The position numbers were made by a program, and so were the translations under genes. The notes below the pieces were generated by a model. The model ran no database searches. It saw only the letters and a program-made list of their open reading frames with translations, and was not told the DNA's origin. Positions 5,400 to 39,180 of a stretch of DNA of 64,000 nt are shown here, one piece after another (position 1 is the stretch's first letter; every line of letters begins with the position of its first letter). The DNA comes from an uncultured virus (IMG/VR IMGVR_UViG_3300031539_000003) (Duplodnaviria > Heunggongvirae > Uroviricota > Caudoviricetes): IMG/VR virus record IMGVR_UViG_3300031539_000003; one strand, given 5' to 3'.

Positions 5400-8300
5400 A
5401 TATTAATCCTTAAAACGGCAAATTCTCATCCCACAAATCACCACGCTTAACCTTAACTGCCATCACATGACTTTCTTTACAGATAACCGATACCTCACAA
5501 TCATATATCTCTGGTTCTTCTTCATTACTACAAAATCCATCCGTATTAGAATTGAAAAATCCGCAATAATGATTTATGCAAACCATACCTTCTTTATTTT
5601 CCTTATCACTCATCTTTTTCCCCATTTACCAATTTATCTGCCGGATTTTTATAAAGTATAGATAAAACAATAGCCATTACAACTTCAGGGTCTTCCGAAG
5701 GTATATTACCGGCTAAACGCATTTTAGTAATTGCATCGGCAAAATCTTTACTCATCCCACACTCCTATATTAATTCACAGTTATCACAACTTCCCAAATC
5801 ACTCAATCTCTCGCACCCATTATGTTCTTTCCACCAGGGGCATACCGGAATCAACTTTGCTTCCTTAATCATGATTGTATATGCATCATGCACGGCATCT
5901 GGGCATCTTTCTTCGACATTATAACAGCATGATTCACTGGTTAATCTATAAACTTTCCGTAGCGATGGATATTGTGGAACTCCCAAAGAATCACTATCGC
6001 CGGTTGCAGCAACTACTCTACCAGTCTCATCGATTAATTCCCAATGACTATGCTCTCCGTTATCAGCATATCTTTCTGCTAATATTGGTTTCTTAACTTT
6101 TTCCACTACTTTACCCCTTTCATCACTATTCCATATCTTCTAAATCTTCCAGATCTTCATCTTCGACTCCTACTATACGATATTCTTTTCCTTCTTCAAG
6201 ACCAGGGCAATTAAAGGATATACATTCTGATTTTTTACCGTCTTTATCAACTATTGTTATTTTTGCCATTTTTCACTTTCTCCTTGGTACTCCTCTAATC
6301 CATGCCTTACGTTTAGTTTTTTGCCCCATTTTATACTTGGCAGTATCGCATACAAAAGACCACCCGTCATCCACAAGTTCCTGACAACGCTTTCCTTCAT
6401 ACCCATTCAATGTTCTGAGAACCATTTTGTCGTCTATCTTCCCACCTGATATATGATATGCAACAAATCCCTTTTTAATAAAATCATTAGGTTTAGCTGG
6501 CATCCTTTTTCTCCTATATCTTTTCGAATACTTCTTCTATTTTTTTAAAATAATCTAAAACTTTTTCCATTTCTTCTTGGGATAGTATTCTCATATTAAA
6601 AAAACAAGGATACCCATTAACGCTCCTTGGTCCTGCTTCACTCATATACTGGTAAATCATCCCCGGTTTCGAGTCAACCAATTCCTTTCTTCCCTTCTCA
6701 TCCATAAGAAGAAGTGGTATAAATATCGAACCTGCCAAATACTGATCTTCCGGCTTTATATTCCTATCAGTAAATATTGTACCTGCCCGAATTGCCATTG
6801 CTATCTCTTTTAATTCCTTGTCAGTTTTCATTACTTTCCTCATTCTTCTTTATAGTTCTTTCACACTGCTGAATTGCCCAATCCATTTTTTCAGGAGCAA
6901 TATCATCAACAGAACCATACATCCTATTAAACAAATCTATTTGACCAGGTGTACATTGTTTCAATAATCTTCTTAATTCTTCATGTTTAAATTCTGCTAT
7001 TTTTTTTAACGTTTCACTCATCTTTAATCCTTGGTTGTTCTTCCTTAATACGCAATAATACTAAAATTTTACCTATCAATGGTAACCCATAATCTTCAGC
7101 AGCCAAAAGAGTAACATTCCCAATACTAAGTGGAAAACGTTCCCAAAATGCAAAAAGACGAATACAGGGAGTATCCCTTCCAAACTTATAATAATACCAC
7201 TTCCCACCTTTAATCCATCTATATATTTTTAAGTCTTCTATTAACGATTTCAGCAATCTTATCACCTTTCTTATTTTCTTCTTTAGCCGGTACTAAATCA
7301 TCACTAAATTTACCAGATATTAATACTTTAACTTCTGAAGTTAATTGATCAAAAGCATTGCCAAGCATTTTCCTTATTGTTTTTTCTCTATTTTCAGCAA
7401 CAATATACAAAGAACAGACGGGACAAACATCAGCATTGAAGCCAACAGTCTCATGCCCCTTGTCACATTCATACATAAAACTAGGCACTATTTACCCCCA
7501 CAATTTCCATTAACACAAAGCCATTTCTTTTGAGCCCCACAATGAACGCAGCAAGGGTCTGATTCCTTTGTCTTAACGTTAGTAACTATCATACCTAACT
7601 CACTGAATGACACATGTATTTCTTCACAATTACTTGCTATATCAGAATCAAATACATATTCCCTTGCTTTTGGTTGCCCATTTTTCTCTTTTCCCCTGAG
7701 AGCATCGGGTTCTCTTATTATTATCTTCATTATAATTGCGATCCACTAATCTTCAATTTTATCCCCATTAATTTCTTGCCCTTCTTCAATCATCTTAACA
7801 AAATTCTCAATTAAATATCGAGGGCCTTTTCCTTTGCAAATCTCATCGTTACATCTTGCGATGACAGTCAATTCCAATCCATTAAGGTCTTTCATTGTTA
7901 TGCCCTTTTCCTTTTAACTCTCTTTAGATCGTAAGCCCCAGATATTCCCTTTAGCCAAATAACTGCTGTTGCAGACATCACTTCAGCTTCTGACCTTGTA
8001 ACTGTATCCCGAATCTCACCATCATCGAGAGTGACAGTAACAGCATCTCCAACATTACATTTACTATTAAACTTATCTACTCGTTCTTGAGCACGTTTAA
8101 CCATTGTTTCAATTTTCATTTTCATCATCCTTTGCTCGAAGATTAAGGCGGACAATCAATTTCTCCTTATCATGATATTCCCCTGTCACTATATCAACTT
8201 CAAGAACCTTACAATAATGAGTAGCCCTATGATAAGGTTTACGCCACAATATTTTCCATTCGCCATTACAATGTGGACATTTCTTTATGTCACTCATTCC

Positions 8301-10074
8301 GGCCCCGAATAAGATGTATAATTATCTTCATTCAATTCAGCCCTCATATTCCACTGCTTACCCATTTTCTTAATATTATAATCAATCATATCATGCACAC
8401 ATACGGTTGATACCGATCCACGACAACAGGTACATTCCCATCCAACTAAATATTGTTCACCAATAGTAGGGATTAAAAGAACTGTTGCTTTTCCACCACA
8501 ATGAGAACACGATTTTACAATTAACCTACTCATACTTAATCCCAATAGTATTGATGTTTTTCATTTTTCTGCTTTTCTTTAGGTTTTACAGGTTCATCTT
8601 TTTTATCTGGTCCTATTTGTATTTCATTTCCTGTCTTCTCGAAATAATATTGCTCAAGATCACGTACTGTTTTCATAGGTTTTTTCGCTATAAAATGTGG
8701 GAGGTGCATCATTTCACCGTTAGGCATATTAAACATTTCTGCTTTTGTAATAGGGGCATACTTTTTATTAAAATGCAAATCGAAGTAATCATCACCATCC
8801 ATAAACCAATGATCAAAACATGAAGAGCACATTACAACTATATCCTGATCTTTTCTCCAAAAACAATAATTGATCCAATCAATGATAGGATCCCCAGTAT
8901 CAAATTCCTTTACTTCGCCATCGACATTAATAGCAATACATTCATAGGTTGATTGTTTCCCATCATCATACTCAATTGAAAGGTGTGCTAAACACATATT
9001 AACCTCCATTTTCTACTGGGAAAGGCTCTTCTTCCCCCGTATGGATAATGACATGATTAGGTTTATACTCAACAATCCTATCACAATAATGCTCATTACA
9101 TTGATAACAACGGCGTGAACAATCACGAGCAAAATCATCAAAGTTCTCATTTGTTACTATCATTATTTTCTCACTTTAAAAGGATTCTTTTTTTCAAGCC
9201 CCAATGTTGTAGGAATATCAGTTAATAAATTGCCACATTTTGGGCATACTTCAACTTCCATAACATGGCTTTTATGGCTACAGTCTTTTCCATCAGGAGC
9301 ATCTATACATAAAGAAGCCGTTCTAACAAAATCAGCCCCATCACCATCGTCCCACAACACCGGAGTAAACCATTCATCGTTAAGAAAAAGATCGTCCCCT
9401 AAGGTCACACCCTTTTTACCGGTACCTTCCCAACCATCATCTATCATTACTCGCATTCTGATTCCTCATTTCCCTTTATCCCCCTACTGCCGAACGTAAC
9501 TACAACCCCGTCCTTTGCTGCGTCTTCGACAAGATCATCTTGCGCTTTAACAAGATCTTTTGAAGCCTTTTTCCTATCCTTATCATTATCGGCTGACAAC
9601 AATGCTGCCATTGCACTTCCTAAAGTCATTTCGATTTCTCCATTTCTTCATGTTCTTCTTCATGGTCAGAGCATACGAAACATAAGTTTCTTATGTCAAC
9701 AACCTGATTATATTTTTTGCTATAAAAATTGTAATTATTAAAATGAGGATCACCCTCAACAATAGAGAATCTTTTACAACCATCATACTCACAAGTTAAT
9801 CTTATTTTAACTAACATTGGAGATGTACCACATTTAGGGCATTTTGAATCAAGATCATCAGCAGGAACATCAAACTTTTTCCATGTTTCATAATTACATT
9901 GCCGACATCGCAATTTCCTAAGTTTCTTCACTTCTTTGTTCCTCGTTTCTCCTCTGGTTCCTCTCTGTCAATATCCTTAAAATGGTACAAGTTGTTATTG
10001 CCCTAAGAAATAAAACATCTATACAAAACAAAAAGAAAACGAATTTTAATATATCTTCCATAATAACCACCTTA

Positions 10075-10704
10075 TTATTTGGAATATTTTTTACACTTGT
10101 CAATGCAATCTATTATAGCATCCACAATACTTTGGGGTGTTCCTGTAGCATCAATTCTAATCCCATCGCAATCATTCTCATAATACTCATACACCCTTTT
10201 TCTGAATTCTAAATCTTTACTTTCAAAATTATCTCGTTCAGTCGTATTTTTCATCCTATCAAGAATAACACCCCAGGATACAGATAAAATAAAGTTTATA
10301 TCAGGTTTACAAACATTGCAAAAACCTAAATTCTTAGTAAATATTTTTTCAGCAATATACCTATCAAGAAGCTCCTTTTTAGTAGTACCAGATGAATATA
10401 TTTGATAAGCTGCAGTAGAATAATACCACCTATCACCTACAACCATCTTACCATCGGCAAGCGCAGGTATTATAACCTTATCGCAAGTTTCTGAGAACGA
10501 AGCAATAAATAACAATAATTGAGTCCGATTAGTAACAGGATCTTTAGCATGTAATAATATTTCCCTTATCTTCTCGCCAGATGCAGTTGTACCAGGTTCT
10601 CGAATATAAAGAGCATCAGGATACACTTTCCTTAACTCATTAATTACTGTTGTCTTACCAACGAAATCAGGGCCTTCAATAGTTATAAACATTCCACCCT
10701 TCAT
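10075..10704 (-). CDS. tmk: Thymidylate kinase
   Basis: FITIEGPDFVGKTT P-loop, REPG, DRWYYSTAAYQ, KPD, DNFE; 209 aa. Confidence 0.92.
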   Translation of the reverse strand: MKGGMFITIEGPDFVGKTTVINELRKVYPDALYIREPGTTASGEKIREILLHAKDPVTNRTQLLLFIASFSETCDKVIIPALADGKMVVGDRWYYSTAAYQIYSSGTTKKELLDRYIAEKIFTKNLGFCNVCKPDINFILSVSWGVILDRMKNTTERDNFESKDLEFRKRVYEYYENDCDGIRIDATGTPQSIVDAIIDCIDKCKKYSK

Positions 10705-11419
10705 AACTTCACCCCAACCACCTTAATGATCATACGACTTTTAAGTAATTCCTTTTTATTATAAATCAGATACAATAATTTTAATACATACTTCCCGGCC
10801 TTAGAGATATAATATTTATCACCATTATGGGCTAACAGCCCCTTTCTCTCTAATGATGCATATGTAGCACCAGAGAAATCTGGTGTTATAATCTCCCAAT
10901 TTTTATCATCTGCCAACTCATTCTCATGAGTCATCGCCAATAATTGCGCCTGCCTTTTAGATACTTGTAAACTAAAGGCAATATTAGTCGTTGAATCCCT
11001 AAAACACTTCTTCCAATGCTCTTCACTCATAATTAGTCCTTGTATTCATAGTATGTGCCATAATACAGTCAAGCATCCTGCCTTTATCTGAATCTGTAAC
11101 TACCGGTTTACCCCAAAACTCCTTAACTGCCCTATGCCATATATCTTCATTACAATTCGCTTTAAGCCTATTTTTAAGGGTCTCTATCTCAGTAGCAAGT
11201 AGCAGAGCAGGACATGGGTTTATGCCCCTTAAATCGCACCCTACACACTTACAGCCCTTCATTGTCCTTTCTTTATCCTCATAAGCGTTCCACCGCTTTA
11301 CTATTTCTTCCCCTAACTGATCCGGAATCCCTGGGGCTATTCCTGCAACTCCAGTATCAGGATCGCTGGTAAATACCAACTCATTACCATTCCAAAACAT
11401 TTCGCCTGTCCACTTTAAT

Positions 11420-11690
11420 TTAAAACCCATTAGTATCATCCCCCTGACGTCGTTCCCAATCTCCAATTCTTAATATTAACTCCTCATACTCACTTTCAGA
11501 CAATTGCCTAGTTTCAATCCACGCACCCGTGAAGGGTGCGACCTTTCCAACAAGGAGGATTATGATTACACCCACCAATCGTAAAAGCACCCTTCTCTAA
11601 ATTGCCTACAATATCCCTGCAAAGAGAGTTAAACGCTTTCTCATCTTCATATGCTCTTGCAAATCTACAGGCTGATACTGAAATAGTCAT
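11420..11690 (-). pseudogene. Small gene apparently interrupted by a CRISPR repeat
   Basis: ORF from ATG 11690 stops at the TGA inside the repeat (11514-11516); a second frame RQLSESEYEELILRIGDWERRQGDDTNGF* runs 11509-11420. Confidence 0.55.
11511..11542 (-). CRISPR. Solitary type I-C CRISPR direct repeat (no array, no cas genes in window)
   Basis: Minus strand GTCGCACCCTTCACGGGTGCGTGGATTGAAAC: 32 nt, CGCACCC/GGGTGCG stem, ATTGAAAC end; GC-rich in an AT-rich context. Confidence 0.9.
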
Positions 11691-13212
11691 TTATTATACA
11701 GCCTCTAATCTTTCTTTTATATTATTTTTCCCTGGCACACTCCTAATTTCTTTCACAGGAAATGCAGCATAAACGTGTATAACAGATGATTTCGACTCAA
11801 TGCCCATAACTTTCCATCCTTCATTTAAGATACGGCATAACCCTTTTTCAAATCCTCCACCTTCACTCTCCCATGTAAAAACTTCTACTTCTTCGTACAT
11901 TCTTCGATTATCCATATCCATTGTAAAAATAGGAGTACATCCTTCATAATTCTTTCTTGGGCATGGGTCACAATCTTGTTTATAATGAGGCCGCGCTCCA
12001 CCACAGGCATGATTATCCGAACAACTACGAAAATTTTTACAAATTACGTACATACTTCATCTTCTTCCACTTCAGGTTTTACAGGTTTAGCCGTAACTTC
12101 CATCAACCTTTCAGCAATAGCCCCAATTGCCAACTTTCTTGCCTTTCCATATCCTTCTGACACATGGCATAATACTAATGTATCTTTAGCATAACCGCTC
12201 CAGGGCAAATCAATCTTATAACAATCGCACTTTTCGTGCGAATAATAATCAATGTAAATCGGATTCTTTGACAATGCATGCCCCCTGTTCATTAATATCC
12301 TTTTTCAAAATAGCACAATGAATCTTAAAAAATCCCAAAGGAGACCACCTGTACAAAGGTTCTGCATTTTCACATCCAAAACATGCCTGTTTATCTTCTT
12401 CTTTTTGAGATTTCATACATCTTCCCCCATAAGCCATCTCTCTGTCAATTTTTCATCATAAACTATTCTATCATAAAAATCATCTCTTGCTTTTTCATAT
12501 GCTTTTTTACAAATATCATCACAAACAAAATCACCATCTGCACTCAAAAGAATACCACCATCTTTCATTTCTTTTTGACAATAAAAACACCTCATTAACA
12601 TCATTCTCCATTTTTTATCTTTTTAACACATAAATCTGAACATTCAGTACTTACTCTATAAGATTTAAATTTCAAAGCACACTTCTTACAAATACCGTAT
12701 TGCCCCCTATTAGTACTAATTACACTTACACGATCATCCGGAAACAAAACGTTACAATTCCAACACCTAACTTGTCCCTTCATAAATATGAACATTTGAG
12801 TTTCAAGAAAATCTATACCCAATGATTCCAGTTTATAATGCATATTTTTTATCTTCACTGGCATTCCATCTTCATCTTTAATCATATCAACACCACGGGT
12901 CTCTCTTATAGCATTAGGTAGATTAGACGAAAGGGGATTTTCTGCATGTCCTTCGAGTTCAAGGATTCTCTCACATTCCCTGACCACATCTTCCCACCAA
13001 TATGTCTCTTCTCTTCTTAATGGAAGTTGTATTTCCATTACCTCCATGCCTATAATACTATCAAAACGACCTCCACGCTCAATCTTCTGCCACCCATATT
13101 CATGCTCCATCCCTTCATTCTGAACTCGCCCACCAGGATCAGGAATATAGATTTCATCTCCTGCTCTTATTTTATCTTTTCTTACTTCGAGATACCTTAA
13201 CATCGTTCCTCC

Positions 13213-13422
13213 CTATATTATAATAAGTCTACCCCTCATTTTACCTTTTTCCTCAATGTAAATTGTTGCACCTTCTTTTTCTATCTCCATAAACTTCTTC
13301 ACAAGTCTTACTGAAATAGCAATTGCCTGCGCTCTGCTTCCAAGATCCATTTTATCCTGAATAATTCTAAGGTTTTTCAAGGCTGTATCACTAAGTCTTA
13401 CATTAACTTGTTCTTCTGCCAT
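13213..13422 (-). CDS. Ribbon-helix-helix (CopG/Arc-like) regulator
   Basis: MAEEQVNVRLSDTALKNLRIIQDKMDLGSRAQAIAISVRL beta-helix-helix pattern; likely start 13422. Confidence 0.55.
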   Translation of the reverse strand: MAEEQVNVRLSDTALKNLRIIQDKMDLGSRAQAIAISVRLVKKFMEIEKEGATIYIEEKGKMRGRLIII

Positions 13423-16400
13423 TAAATTTCCCTTTTGAATCCGGTAAATTAAGTTCCATAAAAACACTGTCATCTTCGGGACAGCTCAAAGATATTTTAT
13501 CAAAATGCCACGCATAACAACCGCCATCCTGACATACTACTGCCATAACTTCCTTTTCTTCCATCTTATTATCTTTAATAAAATCTATAACTTCTTGACC
13601 ATTCATTTTTTATTTCCCCTATGATAAGCTGTTCGTATTCCCGCTGGGGTATCTTTTCTTGGTCCCCTCCTTATCGAATTACAACAACTAACTTTTCCAT
13701 TTTTTACTATAATTCGATCCTTTAGCCCCTCGATAGTTGCAATATATTCCCCGTCAGGGATATTGGGGAATTCATTAGGATAATTCTTCTTAAACCATTC
13801 CTTAACAGCATCTATATATCCTGTCATCCACATTCAATCATCCTCCCCAGGTGGTTCGCAACCTTCAACTGGGCCGTCACACTCATCGCATGAAAACTCT
13901 ATACAATAACCAATTGGTGCACAAGTCATACATTGACAATACTGTCCAAAGTAACCCGACTCTTTCCTCGGACACTTAGACCATACTTCCATTTGAGTAC
14001 ACTCAAGAGACAATTTTAATCCATAGAGCAAGTGAAAATAATCCCCAAATTATCAGCATTATAAACTTATGAAATAATGCATCACCATTTGTCGGACACA
14101 TATCTTGAGATGTATCCTTCTCCACTCTATCAACCCTTTCTTTGCTACACCATTCTCTAAACTTATTCATTTATTCTCCAAAATATCTTTAATCTTCATT
14201 TTAAATTCACGCCACTCATCTATTATCTTCCCCAAACGTCTCCATGCATCCTTTTCTATTATTACTCCCTTTTTTGCTTCTTCCTTCGGGTGAGCACACT
14301 CATCATACGCTTTTTCAAACTTATCCATCCACTTCTTAAAATTACCTTCATTATTAACAAATTTAAGTAACGATCCCCATGTAACTTCTTTACTATCTTC
14401 CCACGTAGTTGTACCCATAGACCATATAAACCCCAATTCATTATCATCTAATCCGTGCTCATCCTGATACGCACGAATCATCTCATATACGCTACGACCA
14501 TTTTCATCCGACATACTACCCCCCACTTTCCCTTCTTCTCATTAGACCTATATCAAGATACCTGTATCTCTGACCACATAATACGCAATAATCATCTTCT
14601 TGAAGAATCAAAGTTTCTCGATCTCTACCAACTAATAATAAACCTTTTTTACATACTGGACATTCACTCTTATATATACCATCCCCAAATCGAGTTAACT
14701 CACAATGAGGTATCTGAATTATAGGCTTACTAACATTCTTACAACTTAAATTTTCTCTATTGGTTTTCTTCTCAACTTTCTTAGGCTCAACAGTTTTCTG
14801 TGATTCAACAGTTCTGCCGGTTTTTTTAAAATATTGTTCACGTATTTTTTCGGGAGCAGTTTTCAATTCTACCCCATATTCTTTTTCAATCATCTCTTCA
14901 ACTTCTTCATTAGGATGATGACCACCACCTAATCCTAAAAATCCAGGCTTTTCCAAAGATGGAACTCCATGAGAACAATTATCACATAATGGAGCACCAC
15001 AGACAAATTGACCGGTATGATCGCAAGATCTTGTCGCAATACCTTTGCAACAAACGCAAACTTTCACCTTATGCTTTTCGCAAAATCCTGATTCATCAGC
15101 AGGCTCATTACAAATTCCTATCCACGATTCATTCCATTTACAAGTTTTAATCAACTTTGACATCAACCGTTCCTTTCCCACTACATTCAGGACACCTTCT
15201 AGGTTTCCTGTACCCTATCATTTTCTGTCCCTTACACTTCGGGCAACACTTCTTCTTAAATAGCGGTACCGGTTCAACAGGTTCATCGTCTGGACAAAAG
15301 CATAACATAGCACCATGCCCTCTTGCCTCTGCTTCACGCCTGTTATACTGCCTACCAGTTACCGTTGCCCCACCATGACAATAAAAAGTCATCCCACCAT
15401 AAATAAACGGGACTGGATCTGTAATAACCATTAACAGACCTTTCTATTACGATATTCAGTACGAATTTTTTCTGGTTCACTCATTTCTTTAGTACTTCTA
15501 ATTTGTTTCTTTTTAGGTTTTTCATTTACCTTAATTTTCCCACTCATAACCGAAGGGTCTAAATCCTCTCCACATACAGGACATAAGGCTAAAATGCCTT
15601 TAGGGGATGCAGGCATCGGACGATACAAAAAAGGAACATCATTACTATTTTGGTATGTATCTTGATAATCATTCCAATATGCACTTATCCATTCTCCATC
15701 ATTAAAAAAACAAACCCGCAAACCTTCTGGATTAAAGTCTGCATTAACCCATTTATGATCAAATCCTATTAATTCAACACCCTCAGGAATATTCCCCGAT
15801 ACTACCTGCCTCCACATAATTAATCCCCATTATTCACCGGTAAATATCCCCATGCAACAATTTCTATGGTGTGTAACCTATGCCTAGAAAAACACATATG
15901 CCAGCATTTCTCCATATATCTTCCCTTTCCTTCATCCCAACTATAATAGTCATCCCCATAAAATCCGACCCCATGCCACGTTCCTGTATCAAATAATACC
16001 GGGTCATCTCTATCAGGTAACCCTTTCTCAATAGAATTCATCTCAATTTCCATTATTTCGGTTCCTCTGCCGATATAGAATTTTTAGATGAATCCAAAGC
16101 CTCTCCCAACTTCGTAATAGCATTACCAATTTCTAACGCAAGTGGCCTCAGATCCTTTCTAACTTCATGAAATACTGCATCAGACATCTTATACATTTCA
16201 AAAAGTTTCCCCTGAACATGGGCATCATCCATAGTAGAAAAACCTGCCATCGCATCTTGAACATCAGCAACGCAATCCTCACACTCTTTATTCCCCTTCT
16301 CATACTCTTTACCTTCACAGGCTTCAGGTCCACCACAAATTCCATCTGCTTCTGGGGATATATCCATTTCCTGCTTAATATTCTTATACTTATCGTTCAT

Positions 16401-31574: not shown

Positions 31575-32345
31575 TCATAAATCAAATATCCCATCAACTG
31601 CCTGTTCAGCTATTTCACAATACTCCCTTGATATATCAATCCCTATAAATTTTCTCTGATTCAACTTTGCAACTCTACAAGTAGTCCCACTACCAACAAA
31701 AGGATCTAATACTATATCACCATCTTTACTCCAAGAAATAATATGATCTCGCACCAACTGTTCCGGAAAAACTGCAGGATGATTCTTTTTACCGCCACCA
31801 ACACCATACGTCCAAATATTTTTTCTTCTCCCAAATGTTGCCATCATCTTTCTAACCCGATCTGCCTTTGTACCATCAGCAGATAAACCGGTAACAGCCA
31901 TACTTTCGACACCACTACGAACATTTTTTCTGTCCCTTATTAAATTTATCGTCTTTGGCTTTCCTTTACTAAAAACAAACATATATTCAAATGATTGAAG
32001 GTAACAATCATTACTCCCAAAACATGCTTGCGCTTTTTCGTAAATCATAGTATCATGTAAGTTAAAGCCTATTTGCATGAAATGTAATGCTTGCCTAAAA
32101 CTTGTCCCTGTTTCGCTACCCTTAATAGTCTCATCCATAACCACCCATACTACAACGCCACCAGGCTTAGTGACCCTATACAATTGACCTGCAAGATACT
32201 TAAAATCAAAAGTATATCCATCGTAAGTTCTTAAATTATCGTATGGGGGACTAGTCACCGTCAAATCAACCAACTCTTTCGGTAAACTAGGTAAAACATC
32301 AGCATTATCGCCACATATAATCTTATTTATATATTCCTGCATCAT
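31575..32345 (-). CDS. Beta-class N4-cytosine/N6-adenine DNA methyltransferase (orphan)
   Basis: VTSPPY catalytic motif precedes HPAVFP and the VLDPFVGSGTT SAM-binding motif. Confidence 0.92.
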   Translation of the reverse strand: MMQEYINKIICGDNADVLPSLPKELVDLTVTSPPYDNLRTYDGYTFDFKYLAGQLYRVTKPGGVVVWVVMDETIKGSETGTSFRQALHFMQIGFNLHDTMIYEKAQACFGSNDCYLQSFEYMFVFSKGKPKTINLIRDRKNVRSGVESMAVTGLSADGTKADRVRKMMATFGRRKNIWTYGVGGGKKNHPAVFPEQLVRDHIISWSKDGDIVLDPFVGSGTTCRVAKLNQRKFIGIDISREYCEIAEQAVDGIFDL

Positions 32346-36813: not shown

Positions 36814-37188
36814 TTATTCATCTCCATTTGGGCACTTACACTTAACTCGATAAACACCGAACTTATTCTTCTTATATTTAACCTCGCAACCACGGTCTTC
36901 GAGTTCTCTAATAATACTTAAACTATCAACATATTTTATTTCCCAACAACCACAGAGAAATAAAATAAAGAGGAATAACAACGAATACTTCACTCTTCCT
37001 CCTTGTTACTTTTTTTTATCTTTTGGCATCCTATATTTTACACGGTATACACCAAAATCGGTATGAGTAACTTTAACCTCATAACCTTGTCTTCTTAACT
37101 CATCAATAAATAAATCGCTTTCAGTGTATCTTATTTGCCAACATTGACAAAATAACAACACAAATAATAACACAAAATACCTCATCAC
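36814..37188 (-). CDS. Tandem pair of small putative lipoproteins (36814-36993, not in ORF track, and 37006-37188)
   Basis: MKYSLLFLFILFLCGCWEIKY...FGVYRVK and MMRYFVLLFVLLFCQCWQIRY...FGVYRVK. Confidence 0.6.
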
Positions 37189-38195
37189 CCCTCCATAACA
37201 ATAGTATCAGGAATGGGTCGTCTGACGGACTCAAAACTGATACCTTTTTTTAATGCCATAATCATACCAGTTGCCTCAAGATAATTCTCTGCTATCAGAA
37301 ATTCATCCGGCATTAGATCATTTAACACTGTTTTATTTTCCCTTACTGCAATTACAGGTATCTTGTTCTGTAAACACGCCTTGTGCGGCCTGCCCATACA
37401 ATTGTATGGTGTAACCATACAAAGAACATTATCTACCGTAACATCATTGCCAATTTGAGGAGCTTTATGAAGCCCCTTAATGATACAATGCAAATAACAC
37501 GTTGAAATTGCTTCTGGGGCAATTCTCGGATCAACTATCTCATTCAATGGTAACATAAATAACTCATTATCATTTTCAACCATAGAAAATTCAACCGGAG
37601 CATGTGCTACCGGTTTATCTAAAGCATCTGCTATGAGTTTTGATGCTATTGCTTCAACACCACCCCAAGGATTCACACCACCTTCACGATAATATCTCAA
37701 AGATATATCTCTACCAACTTTTATCTCAGATGCTATTCCTAGCGCATCAAAATCATACATCTTAACTTGCTTTACAAGTTCCTGCCATCCACTAACATCC
37801 CCTGTGGCAATCCCATTCTCTATTCTCCCTGTCATTTTTAATGGTGTTTTCAATGTTACCACCATTATATCTGCCCCGACAGTCACGCGTGCAGCAGATA
37901 TAGCATTGATCGTCTCTTTATGAATAGGGGCATTGACAACAAACAATATTTTATTTCCACATACTTTTTCAAGCCCTATTTTATTTTCTAAAAACCTGTC
38001 AAGCATACTCCCTTCAACATAAAGAGTATTATGGGACATTTCATTTATATCACTAGCATTTACTACATTCGGATGCGTTATAAAATTTTCACAGGTACTT
38101 GCTACTAACTTTGCTACAGGATTTGCATCCCCCGCATGTCCACCTATTTCTGCCCCGATCCCAGTGGGAACTATAAAAACAACTGAATTTTTCAT
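37185..38195 (-). CDS. DUF3326 family protein
   Basis: IVPTGIGAEIGGHAGDA, ITHPNVVNA, LYVEGSMLDRF, GGVEAI, HAP, GLHKAP, IAVREN, NYLEATG. Confidence 0.85.
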   Translation of the reverse strand: MKNSVVFIVPTGIGAEIGGHAGDANPVAKLVASTCENFITHPNVVNASDINEMSHNTLYVEGSMLDRFLENKIGLEKVCGNKILFVVNAPIHKETINAISAARVTVGADIMVVTLKTPLKMTGRIENGIATGDVSGWQELVKQVKMYDFDALGIASEIKVGRDISLRYYREGGVNPWGGVEAIASKLIADALDKPVAHAPVEFSMVENDNELFMLPLNEIVDPRIAPEAISTCYLHCIIKGLHKAPQIGNDVTVDNVLCMVTPYNCMGRPHKACLQNKIPVIAVRENKTVLNDLMPDEFLIAENYLEATGMIMALKKGISFESVRRPIPDTIVMEG

Positions 38196-38320: not shown

Positions 38321-38812
38321 TCATCCATTTTTATTTGTATTTGTATTTCTTAATAAATATTCAAAGAAATCTTGACCCCAGGCAAATATCTTATCTTTAT
38401 CTTCCACTACACTTAAAGCAACTTCCTTAAATTCACAATAAGCTGCTAATGATTCGGGAACAATATCAACCCAAACATCGCCTACAACGCAATCAATATT
38501 ATTTACATCAGCGGGACATAATTCAAAAAAATCACCGATAGAGTGTGAGCCATATATTTCTCCAAAATGTTCCCTGCAAACATCTATTACCCCTTGATAA
38601 AGTTCTATAGTATGTACCGATTTTACTTTTGGATTCTGCTCAAGATACTTCTGTATTACTCCCAACCCATAACCGGCAACAAGCACATTCCCACAGGCTT
38701 GATCTGCAATAACTTTTTGATACTTACTCTCATCTGGGATGTCCCACATCCATAACTGATCATCTATCCATAAAAAATGATAACCATGTTGCTCAAGAAT
38801 TTCTATTTTCAT
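38321..38812 (-). CDS. Class I SAM-dependent methyltransferase fold, short spermidine-synthase-like protein
   Basis: GNVLVAGYGLGVI, VHTIE, GDFF, DCVVGDVW. Confidence 0.7.
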   Translation of the reverse strand: MKIEILEQHGYHFLWIDDQLWMWDIPDESKYQKVIADQACGNVLVAGYGLGVIQKYLEQNPKVKSVHTIELYQGVIDVCREHFGEIYGSHSIGDFFELCPADVNNIDCVVGDVWVDIVPESLAAYCEFKEVALSVVEDKDKIFAWGQDFFEYLLRNTNTNKNG

Positions 38813-39180
38813 TTCCTATCCACCACCGTAAAAGAAGATATTTGACCTGAGAACCAATCAGCCGTAAAATTTGCAGTCAAATTACTATCAAAATCTTTAC
38901 AACTGAATATATTAACAAATAACTTCTTAAAAGGATCAACTGTATGAATCACAATATTGCTAGTCTTAATGAACTGCACACATGTAACCCCCTTCAAATG
39001 ATCCTCTGCCTTATCATATTCTTCTGGATATCCATTATAATCCCACCAATGGAGATCCTCCCTTTGCATATCAATCAAGTTGCATAATGCTATTATATAT
39101 TTCTTAATATCATTACGATTAAATTTAGAAACATCGCAATTATGTATATCTAGAATAATCTCCTTACCATAATTTTTCAC
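38809..39180 (-). CDS. speD: S-adenosylmethionine decarboxylase proenzyme (SpeD-like, pyruvoyl)
   Basis: YGKEIILDIHNC, GVTCVQFIKTSNIVIHT (putative autocleavage Ser), VNIFSCKDFD. Confidence 0.8.
   Translation of the reverse strand: MKNYGKEIILDIHNCDVSKFNRNDIKKYIIALCNLIDMQREDLHWWDYNGYPEEYDKAEDHLKGVTCVQFIKTSNIVIHTVDPFKKLFVNIFSCKDFDSNLTANFTADWFSGQISSFTVVDRK

Follow-up and report, generated by a model that had tools for sequence, protein, structure and literature searches.

What is a single intact CRISPR (short palindromic repeats, clustered and regularly interspaced) repeat doing inside a phage operon, and how did it get there? The question is raised by a stretch of 64,000 nucleotides (nt) from an uncultured virus of the Caudoviricetes (IMG/VR record IMGVR_UViG_3300031539_000003), which was analyzed over its whole length and is called the window here. 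A solitary type I-C repeat lies on its minus strand, within a block of about 40 nt. Family homology on both sides indicates that this block split one conserved small gene, rather than sitting in an intergenic gap. By analogy with a known system, there is about an even chance that this host-derived solitary repeat unit acts as an RNA anti-CRISPR (Racr) of the kind of RacrIC1. The features on which the argument is built are the following:

11511..11542, minus strand: type I-C CRISPR repeat, exact over 32 nt (sequence, array matches, catalogue label and fold).
11510..11549, minus strand: inserted block of about 40 nt, in which TGGAAAG precedes the repeat and a T follows it (homology to the family breaks off at 11550 and resumes at 11509).
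11514..11690, minus strand: present open reading frame (ORF) of 58 amino acids, residues 1–47 of which make up the N-terminal two thirds of a small protein that is conserved.
11420..11509, minus strand, +1 frame: displaced C-terminal remnant of 29 codons and a stop (codon usage, family alignment and hidden Markov model).

Read on the minus strand, 11542..11511 is GTCGCACCCTTCACGGGTGCGTGGATTGAAAC. This 32-mer is present in one copy when both strands of the window are searched with up to three mismatches, and none of 100 dinucleotide shuffles of the window yields a match. Its G+C content is 59%, compared with a mean of 35% (standard deviation 8.7%) for all 32-nt windows of the stretch. The predicted fold of the repeat in isolation (−13.1 kcal/mol) has a stem of 7 bp closed by a loop of 5 nt, and 11 nt are left unpaired behind it; repeat nt 3–9 pair with nt 15–21 (window 11540–11534 with 11528–11522). 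The marks of a type I-C repeat, identity to array repeats and a hairpin with an 11-nt 3′ tail, are thus both present. The subtype label comes via the Racr catalogue, in which the identical 32-mer is entered under subtype I-C for two viral contigs (rows 364 and 846 of supplementary file 3, PMC10651486). By the measures of SRUFinder, the match extends over 32 of 32 nt, identical catalogue entries scoring 63.9 bits against a threshold of > 41.1. No partial repeat of >70% identity lies within 100 bp on either side, and the repeat is on phage-like sequence without cas association in the scans. As for the intergenic position that SRUFinder also considers, the repeat is located between the conserved part of the truncated ORF and the next gene, overlaps the last 29 nt of that ORF, and lies inside what was once a single gene.

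The first-pass annotation of this DNA had described an intact, solitary I-C repeat in CRISPR RNA (crRNA) sense within an operon, with no second repeat at spacer distance and no cas genes in 64 kb, and this description holds, for the cas genes as far as the scanned ORFs go. In the flanks, no degenerate second repeat is detectable by local alignment (scores of 12 and 10, below the 95th percentile of 14 in 4249 control tiles). Since there is one repeat only, without even a degenerate partner, a viral mini-CRISPR array, with at least two repeats around a spacer, is ruled out. The window has a G+C content of 33–38%. Its strand bias is strong and constant: almost every ORF of at least 100 amino acids is encoded by the minus strand, and the repeat therefore has crRNA sense with respect to the genes around it. 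No Cas family was matched by PADLOC (44 ORFs), PHROGs (97 ORFs) or Pfam (34 ORFs), most ORFs of <100 amino acids lying outside these scans. Rfam gave no match at E ≤ 1 in 9000–14000 and none at the gathering score in the whole window. A scan of the window for further G+C-rich hairpin islands returned 103 of them and is uninformative.

Could the union of repeat and phage be an artefact, produced either by chimeric assembly through a host array, a danger that the first-pass annotation had itself named, or by chance resemblance? Twelve public runs contain part of 10800–12300, six of them nearly the whole of it, which makes these six possible sources of the DNA; four of the twelve (X1, X3, X7 and X10) were compared over 10000–13000 via assembled contigs. 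What favors an artefact is that the k-mer-based Logan contigs of X1 and X3 stop within the repeat (10000–11540 and 11511–13000, a 30-nt overlap), which numerous arrays of those samples have in common; because they end there, these two runs neither bridge nor refute the junction. Conversely, a contig of 252 nt from X7, a run that is not among the possible sources of the DNA, spans 11459–11710 with one mismatch and bridges the repeat, beyond which it extends by 52 nt in one direction and 168 nt in the other. The depths of the two flanks are equal within a run (14.3 and 13.8 in X1; 16.1 and 17.9 in X3), and the 58-amino-acid product, which crosses the upstream junction, is present on six contigs, the longest of 136,346 nt. 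Moreover, two parts of what homology identifies as one gene flank the repeat in the correct order and orientation, and this evidence, drawn from the protein family, is independent of any assembly. The repeat is not an assembly chimera, and given also the empty result with shuffled sequence, an artefact of either kind is scarcely credible.

Which gene did the block enter? The 58-amino-acid ORF retains C8, C41, H43 and C47, and its last nine residues and TGA stop codon (11516–11514) are encoded by the repeat. A word-indexed homologue search with this ORF returned the query itself only; an exhaustive HMMER search of 1.84 billion representatives returned 19 proteins at E ≤ 0.001, the query included. 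Long repetitive proteins account for four of these. The remaining matches cover ORF residues 1–47/49; in all of them except P0019, the alignment begins at residue 1 or 2 of the matching protein. Nine family members have 69–83 amino acids, and others have 48, 104, 108 and 124. The family alignment was built from 11 full-length members (69–108 amino acids) and one 48-amino-acid fragment, and the family hidden Markov model (HMM) matches residues 1–48 of the 58-amino-acid ORF at E = 9.3e-21. In a second alignment of 15 members, C8, C41, H43 and C47 are invariant, a set that suggests a metal site. Past Cys47, members continue with R/P-x-L/P-[ST]-E-E..L..RL, a helix; in the AlphaFold model of member P0007 (predicted local distance difference test, pLDDT, 89), a helix occupies residues 52–71.

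The missing part of the gene is found on the other side of the repeat. The reading frame of the remnant, 11509..11423, is RQLSESEYEELILRI... It has no convincing start, and its stop codon (11422–11420) overlaps the ATG of the next gene (11430), an arrangement that is usual in this tightly packed operon. Judged by codon usage, the frame of the remnant comes first of the three (mean log P per codon of −3.79, vs −5.07 and −4.53), in a test in which the true frame wins for 99% of real 80-nt coding pieces of this phage. An HMM of 11 homologues gives 70.4 bits for the N-terminal 47 residues and 85.4 bits for the read-through with 40 nt removed, which aligns to position 63 of 73, whereas tails from the other two frames bring the score to 71.6–72.0 bits (a gain of 1.2–1.6, vs 15 bits for the remnant frame). 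With an HMM of the C-terminus only, the remnant ranks third among 2829 stop-to-stop fragments of the window, and it aligns to the C-terminal helix of the family. BLASTP of the 29-amino-acid remnant against P0007 gave no alignment, a result superseded by the HMM read-through. By shifting the frame, the insertion truncated the protein after its Cys/His-rich core and left the tail of the gene untranslated.

The family is made up of unnamed small phage and metagenome proteins of about 70–80 amino acids (P0003–P0022), rich in Cys and His and with a C-terminal helix. In their source records, the members are named solely “hypothetical protein.” Pfam matched none of 14 members, apart from one weak TPR_20 at E = 0.048. 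Searched with Foldseek, the pLDDT-89 family model has its best match in the PDB at E = 1.6, and ESM Atlas gave no usable match; the best hit of a PDB sequence search is an annexin at E = 0.22. An intact member of 78 amino acids (P0012) is encoded at 8001–8237 of an unrelated phage-like contig (L039), without any repeat-like sequence. No other ORF of this contig matches the window, and neither P0012 nor P0018 was found in the viral contig collection.

How large is the block, and when did it arrive? Because homology in the first frame stops at 11550, the inserted block is 11549..11510; one T is ambiguous, so that the block may equally be TTGGAAAG followed by the repeat and end exactly at the repeat’s 3′ end. 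The length of the block must be 1 mod 3, and 37 or 34 nt are less likely than 40: allowing one extra residue (X) at the break gives 78.8 bits, 6.6 worse than the 85.4 bits of the 40-nt model. The two junctions are asymmetric, with 7–8 foreign nt on the 5′ side and 0–1 on the 3′ side. The remnant is undecayed, and own-sequence contigs of the phage in the four compared runs differ by zero or one mismatch; the insertion is therefore recent. What entered this small, conserved accessory gene of a large phage was one full I-C repeat, with about 8 extra 5′ nt and none at the 3′ end. That a random host fragment of about 40 nt should amount to one whole repeat, to within 0–1 nt at its 3′ end, is unlikely, and the improbability of such a capture by chance would point either to selection or to a mechanism specific to arrays. 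Arrays and phages are documented to recombine, from spacer to target (Varble et al., 2019, in the account given by the review PMC8616872), and array–phage recombination would explain an exact 3′ and a ragged 5′ junction.

The flanks were therefore read for traces of a donor and of a targeted site. No donor array is found among 618 exact repeats, the best flank match being 5 nt. The usual protospacer-adjacent motif (PAM) of type I-C is TTC. It is absent where it would be expected: no TTC lies 33–37 nt upstream of the repeat, and in the 40-nt model the bases before TAGGCAATTG read TTG, not TTC. The I-C PAMs named in 10.1101/2024.12.27.630466 are TTC and TTA. A further feature upstream bears on the reconstructed junction:

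11600..11611, minus strand: 12-mer TTGTAGGCAATT, which reappears across the junction (11553–11550 / 11509–11502) once 40 nt are removed.

This copy is upstream by 58 nt in the reconstructed gene, or by 98 nt in the sequence as it now stands, and is in another reading frame; a 12-mer of that kind arises in 0.6% of 20000 random 40-nt deletions and may be chance. In run X7, a marine metagenome, one array unit can be aligned on 11507–11547 such that the ends of its 35-nt spacer match TAGG and GAAAG, the bases that flank the phage repeat. This match may be due to chance and is too short to call.

What could the repeat do once in place? Its sense orientation in a tightly packed, co-directional gene block means that it is probably transcribed as part of the operon mRNA. 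In type I-C systems, Cas5c cuts directly 3′ of the hairpin and an 11-nt handle is kept (10.1101/2024.12.27.630466; legend in PMC10651486), and the fold places the corresponding element as follows:

11511..11521, minus strand: predicted 5′ handle of 11 nt, TGGATTGAAAC (fold and I-C processing rule).

In a host with a cognate I-C system, Cas5c would bind the hairpin and cut between 11522 and 11521, leaving the 11-nt handle. Two products would be formed, an upstream RNA that ends in the hairpin and a downstream RNA with the handle and without a 3′ repeat, and either could, judging from precedent, trap Cas5c and Cas7 in unproductive complexes. In the case of RacrIF1, the inhibitor is the product that ends in the hairpin, together with Cas6f and a Cas7f filament of excessive length (PMC10651486). 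As a side effect, the cut would deprive the truncated ORF of its stop codon, which lies inside the handle. The first-pass annotation had foreseen the release of a crRNA mimic made of the handle and TAGGCAATTG...; the handle is indeed predicted from the fold, although TAGGCAATTG is simply the tail of the split gene. Its premise that solitary repeat units can act as RNA anti-CRISPRs is established, RacrIC1 of type I-C included (PMC10651486). Its candidate of that class survives as a real solitary unit in sense orientation, although a less novel one than assumed, the 32-mer being a viral I-C unit already in the catalogue.

Several observations weigh against an anti-CRISPR role. On the minus strand, no sigma-70-like promoter is found in the 250 nt upstream (11543–11792), the nearest being at 11927–11899 with 9 of 12 matches; a promoter within 250 bp upstream was used in selecting Racr candidates and is lacking here; the repeat is instead assumed to be transcribed with the operon. 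Behind the repeat there is no terminator. Inhibition by Racrs is dose-dependent, and RacrIF1 has its own strong promoter (PMC10651486). No RNA run that covers the locus is listed among the public runs. With flanks of at least 60 nt, the predicted probability of the hairpin is 0.02–0.32, compared with a median of 0.55 and a 10th percentile of 0.10 in 144 array contexts, and it is lowered by a 9-nt upstream competitor (11587–11595). A cut at the repeat would also sever the operon mRNA before the downstream genes, including that for thymidylate kinase. Because the insertion is young, its conservation is silent on selection. None of 624 unique spacers from 38 repeat-holding loci matches the window, the best alignment of 19/20 nt being at chance level. 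Finally, no known anti-CRISPR (Acr) protein was recognized near the repeat by PHROGs, Pfam and PDB sequence searches, none of which is a dedicated Acr library. The complementary sequences are these:

11587..11595, minus strand: 9-mer GAAGGGTGC, a perfect complement of the repeat’s 5′ arm and loop, which rivals the repeat hairpin in predicted folds.
11234..11246, minus strand: 13-mer, 12/13 complementary to repeat nt 2–14, inside the next gene (coding for C-V-G-C-D); the sole such match in the window.

Both stretches complementary to the 5′ arm are in conserved-looking coding sequence. The 9-mer GAAGGGTGC encodes the conserved E-K-G-A motif of the family and thus predates the insertion. In both, the complementarity is probably chance.

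Does the repeat reveal the host? The first-pass annotation had regarded it as a handle for host prediction and had proposed a search among known repeats. This search found the exact 32-mer as an array repeat in 618 copies at 37 loci of 26 genome records. The bacterial records comprise Verrucomicrobia, Limisphaerales, Megasphaera, Atopobiaceae, Collinsella, Melioribacter, Bacillaceae, Oscillospiraceae, Peptococcaceae, Spirochaetes, Psychrobacter, Alteromonadaceae, Oxalobacter and Bdellovibrionales, and the archaeal records Thermoplasmatota, Methanofollis and Methanomassiliicoccaceae. Being spread over many bacterial phyla and three archaeal lineages, the repeat is a poor host handle, and with no spacer match to add to it the earlier expectation proved weak. 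In the same runs, arrays built of this repeat, or of one with a similarity of at least 80%, reach a summed depth of 65.7 (X1) and 613.5 (X3), and 12 spacer-bearing joints are listed. A scan of viral contigs for the exact repeat found only L001, the end of a two-repeat array. Single exact hits elsewhere were considered as solitary units and rejected: L006 and L031 are mini-arrays, L009 is at a contig end, and L021, L023 and L025 are arrays of variant repeats. The two mini-arrays, L006 (1400–1532, a metagenome-assembled genome, MAG, of Sphaerochaetaceae) and L031 (minus strand, a Spirochaetes MAG), each have two repeats. Their layout is a degenerate or variant repeat, a spacer of 34–35 nt and the exact repeat, with no longer array in the examined flanks.

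If the repeat is not an RNA anti-CRISPR, it may be the inert scar of a one-off recombination or repair event with a host array, possibly during targeting, which persists because the truncated gene is dispensable and which has no meaningful effect on immunity. Such an outcome is on the unlikely side, though it has to be taken seriously. The insertion is recent and destroyed a reading frame, the repeat has no promoter of its own, its hairpin is predicted to form rarely in context, and the asymmetric junctions fit one homologous and one illegitimate crossover, array spacer–phage target recombination being a documented process (Varble et al., 2019, via PMC8616872). Against it, an exact repeat in sense orientation should bind Cas5c whatever its origin, so that inertness needs low expression or a host without a I-C system. 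The flanks are not in its favor either: for a spacer of 33–37 nt, TTC is missing from the PAM position in the upstream flank, TTG rather than TTC stands before the downstream flank in the 40-nt model, and the 618 exact repeats include no donor. The repeat could also be a patch of homology that lets the phage genome recombine into host arrays and interrupt them, an idea present in the literature (PMC10651486; PMC8616872) and one that the perfect identity to host repeats would suit. With just 32 bp of homology, no integrase or temperate sign among the scanned ORFs, and no read joining a phage flank to an array (the joints seen are those of arrays by themselves), this is very improbable.

A different function altogether would follow if the handle and the tail of the gene were loaded in Cascade as a single-repeat guide, either to target siblings without the insertion (exclusion or homing) or to repress a host promoter as Cracrs do. 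It is known that I-C single repeat-like units yield Cascade-dependent RNAs of 48–50 nt (10.1101/2024.12.27.630466) and that viral I-C Cracrs exist (10.1101/2024.10.29.618823), and the phage’s own copy would be shielded because the repeat occupies the PAM position. Nevertheless, the idea is improbable. What follows the handle is ancestral coding sequence of the phage and no captured pseudo-spacer. Any match to a host promoter would therefore be accidental, and a Cracr-like regulator is unlikely because that sequence is the phage gene’s own tail. No match of TTC or TTA plus the 9-nt seed occurs in 116,343 bases of array-bearing loci, a set that does not include the host cas operon; no stable 3′ hairpin lies about 37–39 nt downstream; and no sibling without the insertion is present in the four compared runs. 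Under the 40-nt model, an uninserted sibling would have TTG, which is not a reported I-C PAM. A particular form of this idea, to which little probability is given, holds that the phage captured the repeat at a host-targeted site by a crossover at the repeat–spacer boundary. The repeat would then replace the PAM and shield the site, and the old tail would serve the host’s I-C machinery as a guide against siblings without the insertion. As the best-fitting reconstruction puts TTG before the target, capture at a target site is allowed and not favored. If true, the unit would be a protein-free, self-favoring element, a solitary repeat unit caught at birth.

The region around the repeat is an accessory or early one, in a large phage. 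The genes on either side of the split gene, and of the repeat within it, are the following:

11694..12053, minus strand: upstream gene of 119 amino acids, an ORF without a family match, its stop 3 nt before the ATG of the split gene.
11023..11430, minus strand: downstream neighbor gene, 135 amino acids from the ATG at 11430, an ORF without a family match, which would sit on the 3′ cleavage product.

No relatives of the 135-amino-acid protein were found in the viral or metagenome contig collections, and blastn of 9000–14000 against phage GenBank matched nothing. Two genes downstream of the repeat, a protein of 109 amino acids (10701–11030, minus strand) resembles by eye a winged-helix DNA-binding protein; it has no Pfam or PHROG match at E ≤ 0.01. 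An Aca-like regulator in that place would bear on an anti-CRISPR locus. The thymidylate kinase gene is 0.8 kb downstream of the repeat (Pfam, PHROGs). Among the 87 larger ORFs, 13 have PHROGs matches at E ≤ 1e-5, including DNA methyltransferases, an M15-type endolysin, an HNH endonuclease and an RNA ligase, and Pfam further matched an AdoMet decarboxylase, a Cpn10-like protein and DUF3326. Many small operon proteins in 9626–13203 (minus strand) are Cys-rich, with CxxC pairs of the zinc-ribbon type (e.g., 9626–9931, 12413–12604 and 12601–13203), and have no family match except one weak Zn_ribbon_8. The same accessory region holds, all on the minus strand, DUF3326 (37185–38195, E = 1.9e-72), an AdoMet decarboxylase-like protein (38809–39180) and an N6/N4 DNA methylase (31575–32345), which PADLOC classes as an orphan methyltransferase (E = 2.8e-85). 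There is no tRNA in the window, no integrase or other sign of a temperate lifestyle among the scanned ORFs, and no capsid or tail gene in these 64 kb, the whole genome being at least 136 kb long. The label of phage therefore rests on gene content and architecture.

What does the locus add? The kind of element is already known, solitary repeat units being an accepted class of RNA anti-CRISPR candidates, and the repeat is a clean example of that kind, with an informative origin and a function suggested by analogy. Its contribution is a dated origin: a piece of a host array of about 40 nt in a conserved phage gene, with an exact 3′ junction, a ragged 5′ junction and the displaced tail intact. In the parts of PMC10651486 covered here, the one source considered on this point, no discussion of the origin of solitary repeat units was found. 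The locus thus illustrates, in concrete terms that can be tested, how phages come by such units, and catalogues confined to intergenic DNA may hide other gene-splitting insertions. It also carries a caution, in that an exact I-C repeat common to 26 genome records over many phyla names no host.

How, then, does the repeat compare with known systems? Viral mini-CRISPR arrays (PMC11656645, PMC8616872) likewise place host-type repeats on viruses without cas genes, but they have at least two repeats around a spacer, whereas one is present here. In the I-C crlRNA genes of hosts, a single repeat-like unit gives rise to Cascade-dependent RNAs of 48–50 nt with an 11-nt handle and a variable 3′ end (10.1101/2024.12.27.630466), and viral counterparts, the Cracrs, exist for I-C as well (10.1101/2024.10.29.618823). 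These share with the phage locus one I-C repeat-like unit followed by non-repeat sequence, with a Cas5c cut 3′ of the hairpin and an 11-nt handle, which for the phage repeat are predicted. In crlRNAs and Cracrs, the pseudo-spacer matches a promoter beside a TTC or TTA PAM and a 3′ hairpin stands at the end, whereas here the sequence that follows is the tail of a phage gene, with no target found and no 3′ hairpin evident.

Closer still are the 2,103 viral solitary repeat units catalogued by SRUFinder, in a paper that also reports nine candidates found to be inhibitory (PMC10651486). As in these, the repeat is an exact known one on viral sequence with no partial repeat in the flanks; the catalogue is intergenic only, whereas an insertion within a gene can be demonstrated here. 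The nearest relative is RacrIC1, which lies in a prophage of Bifidobacterium pseudocatenulatum 11 nt downstream of an acrIC5 homologue, is made as part of a bicistronic RNA and inhibits type I-C on its own (Camara-Wilpert et al., 2023, PMC10651486). RacrIC1 ends a short two-gene unit with a mapped promoter, and its inhibition has been demonstrated, whereas the present candidate stands midway in a long operon, has no promoter close by and interrupts a gene. Instead of following a homologue of acrIC5 at 11 nt, it shares 29 nt with the end of a truncated ORF that is not a known Acr. In both cases, a single I-C repeat on a phage without cas genes is co-directional with a small ORF and comes right after it, on what would here, too, be the same transcript.

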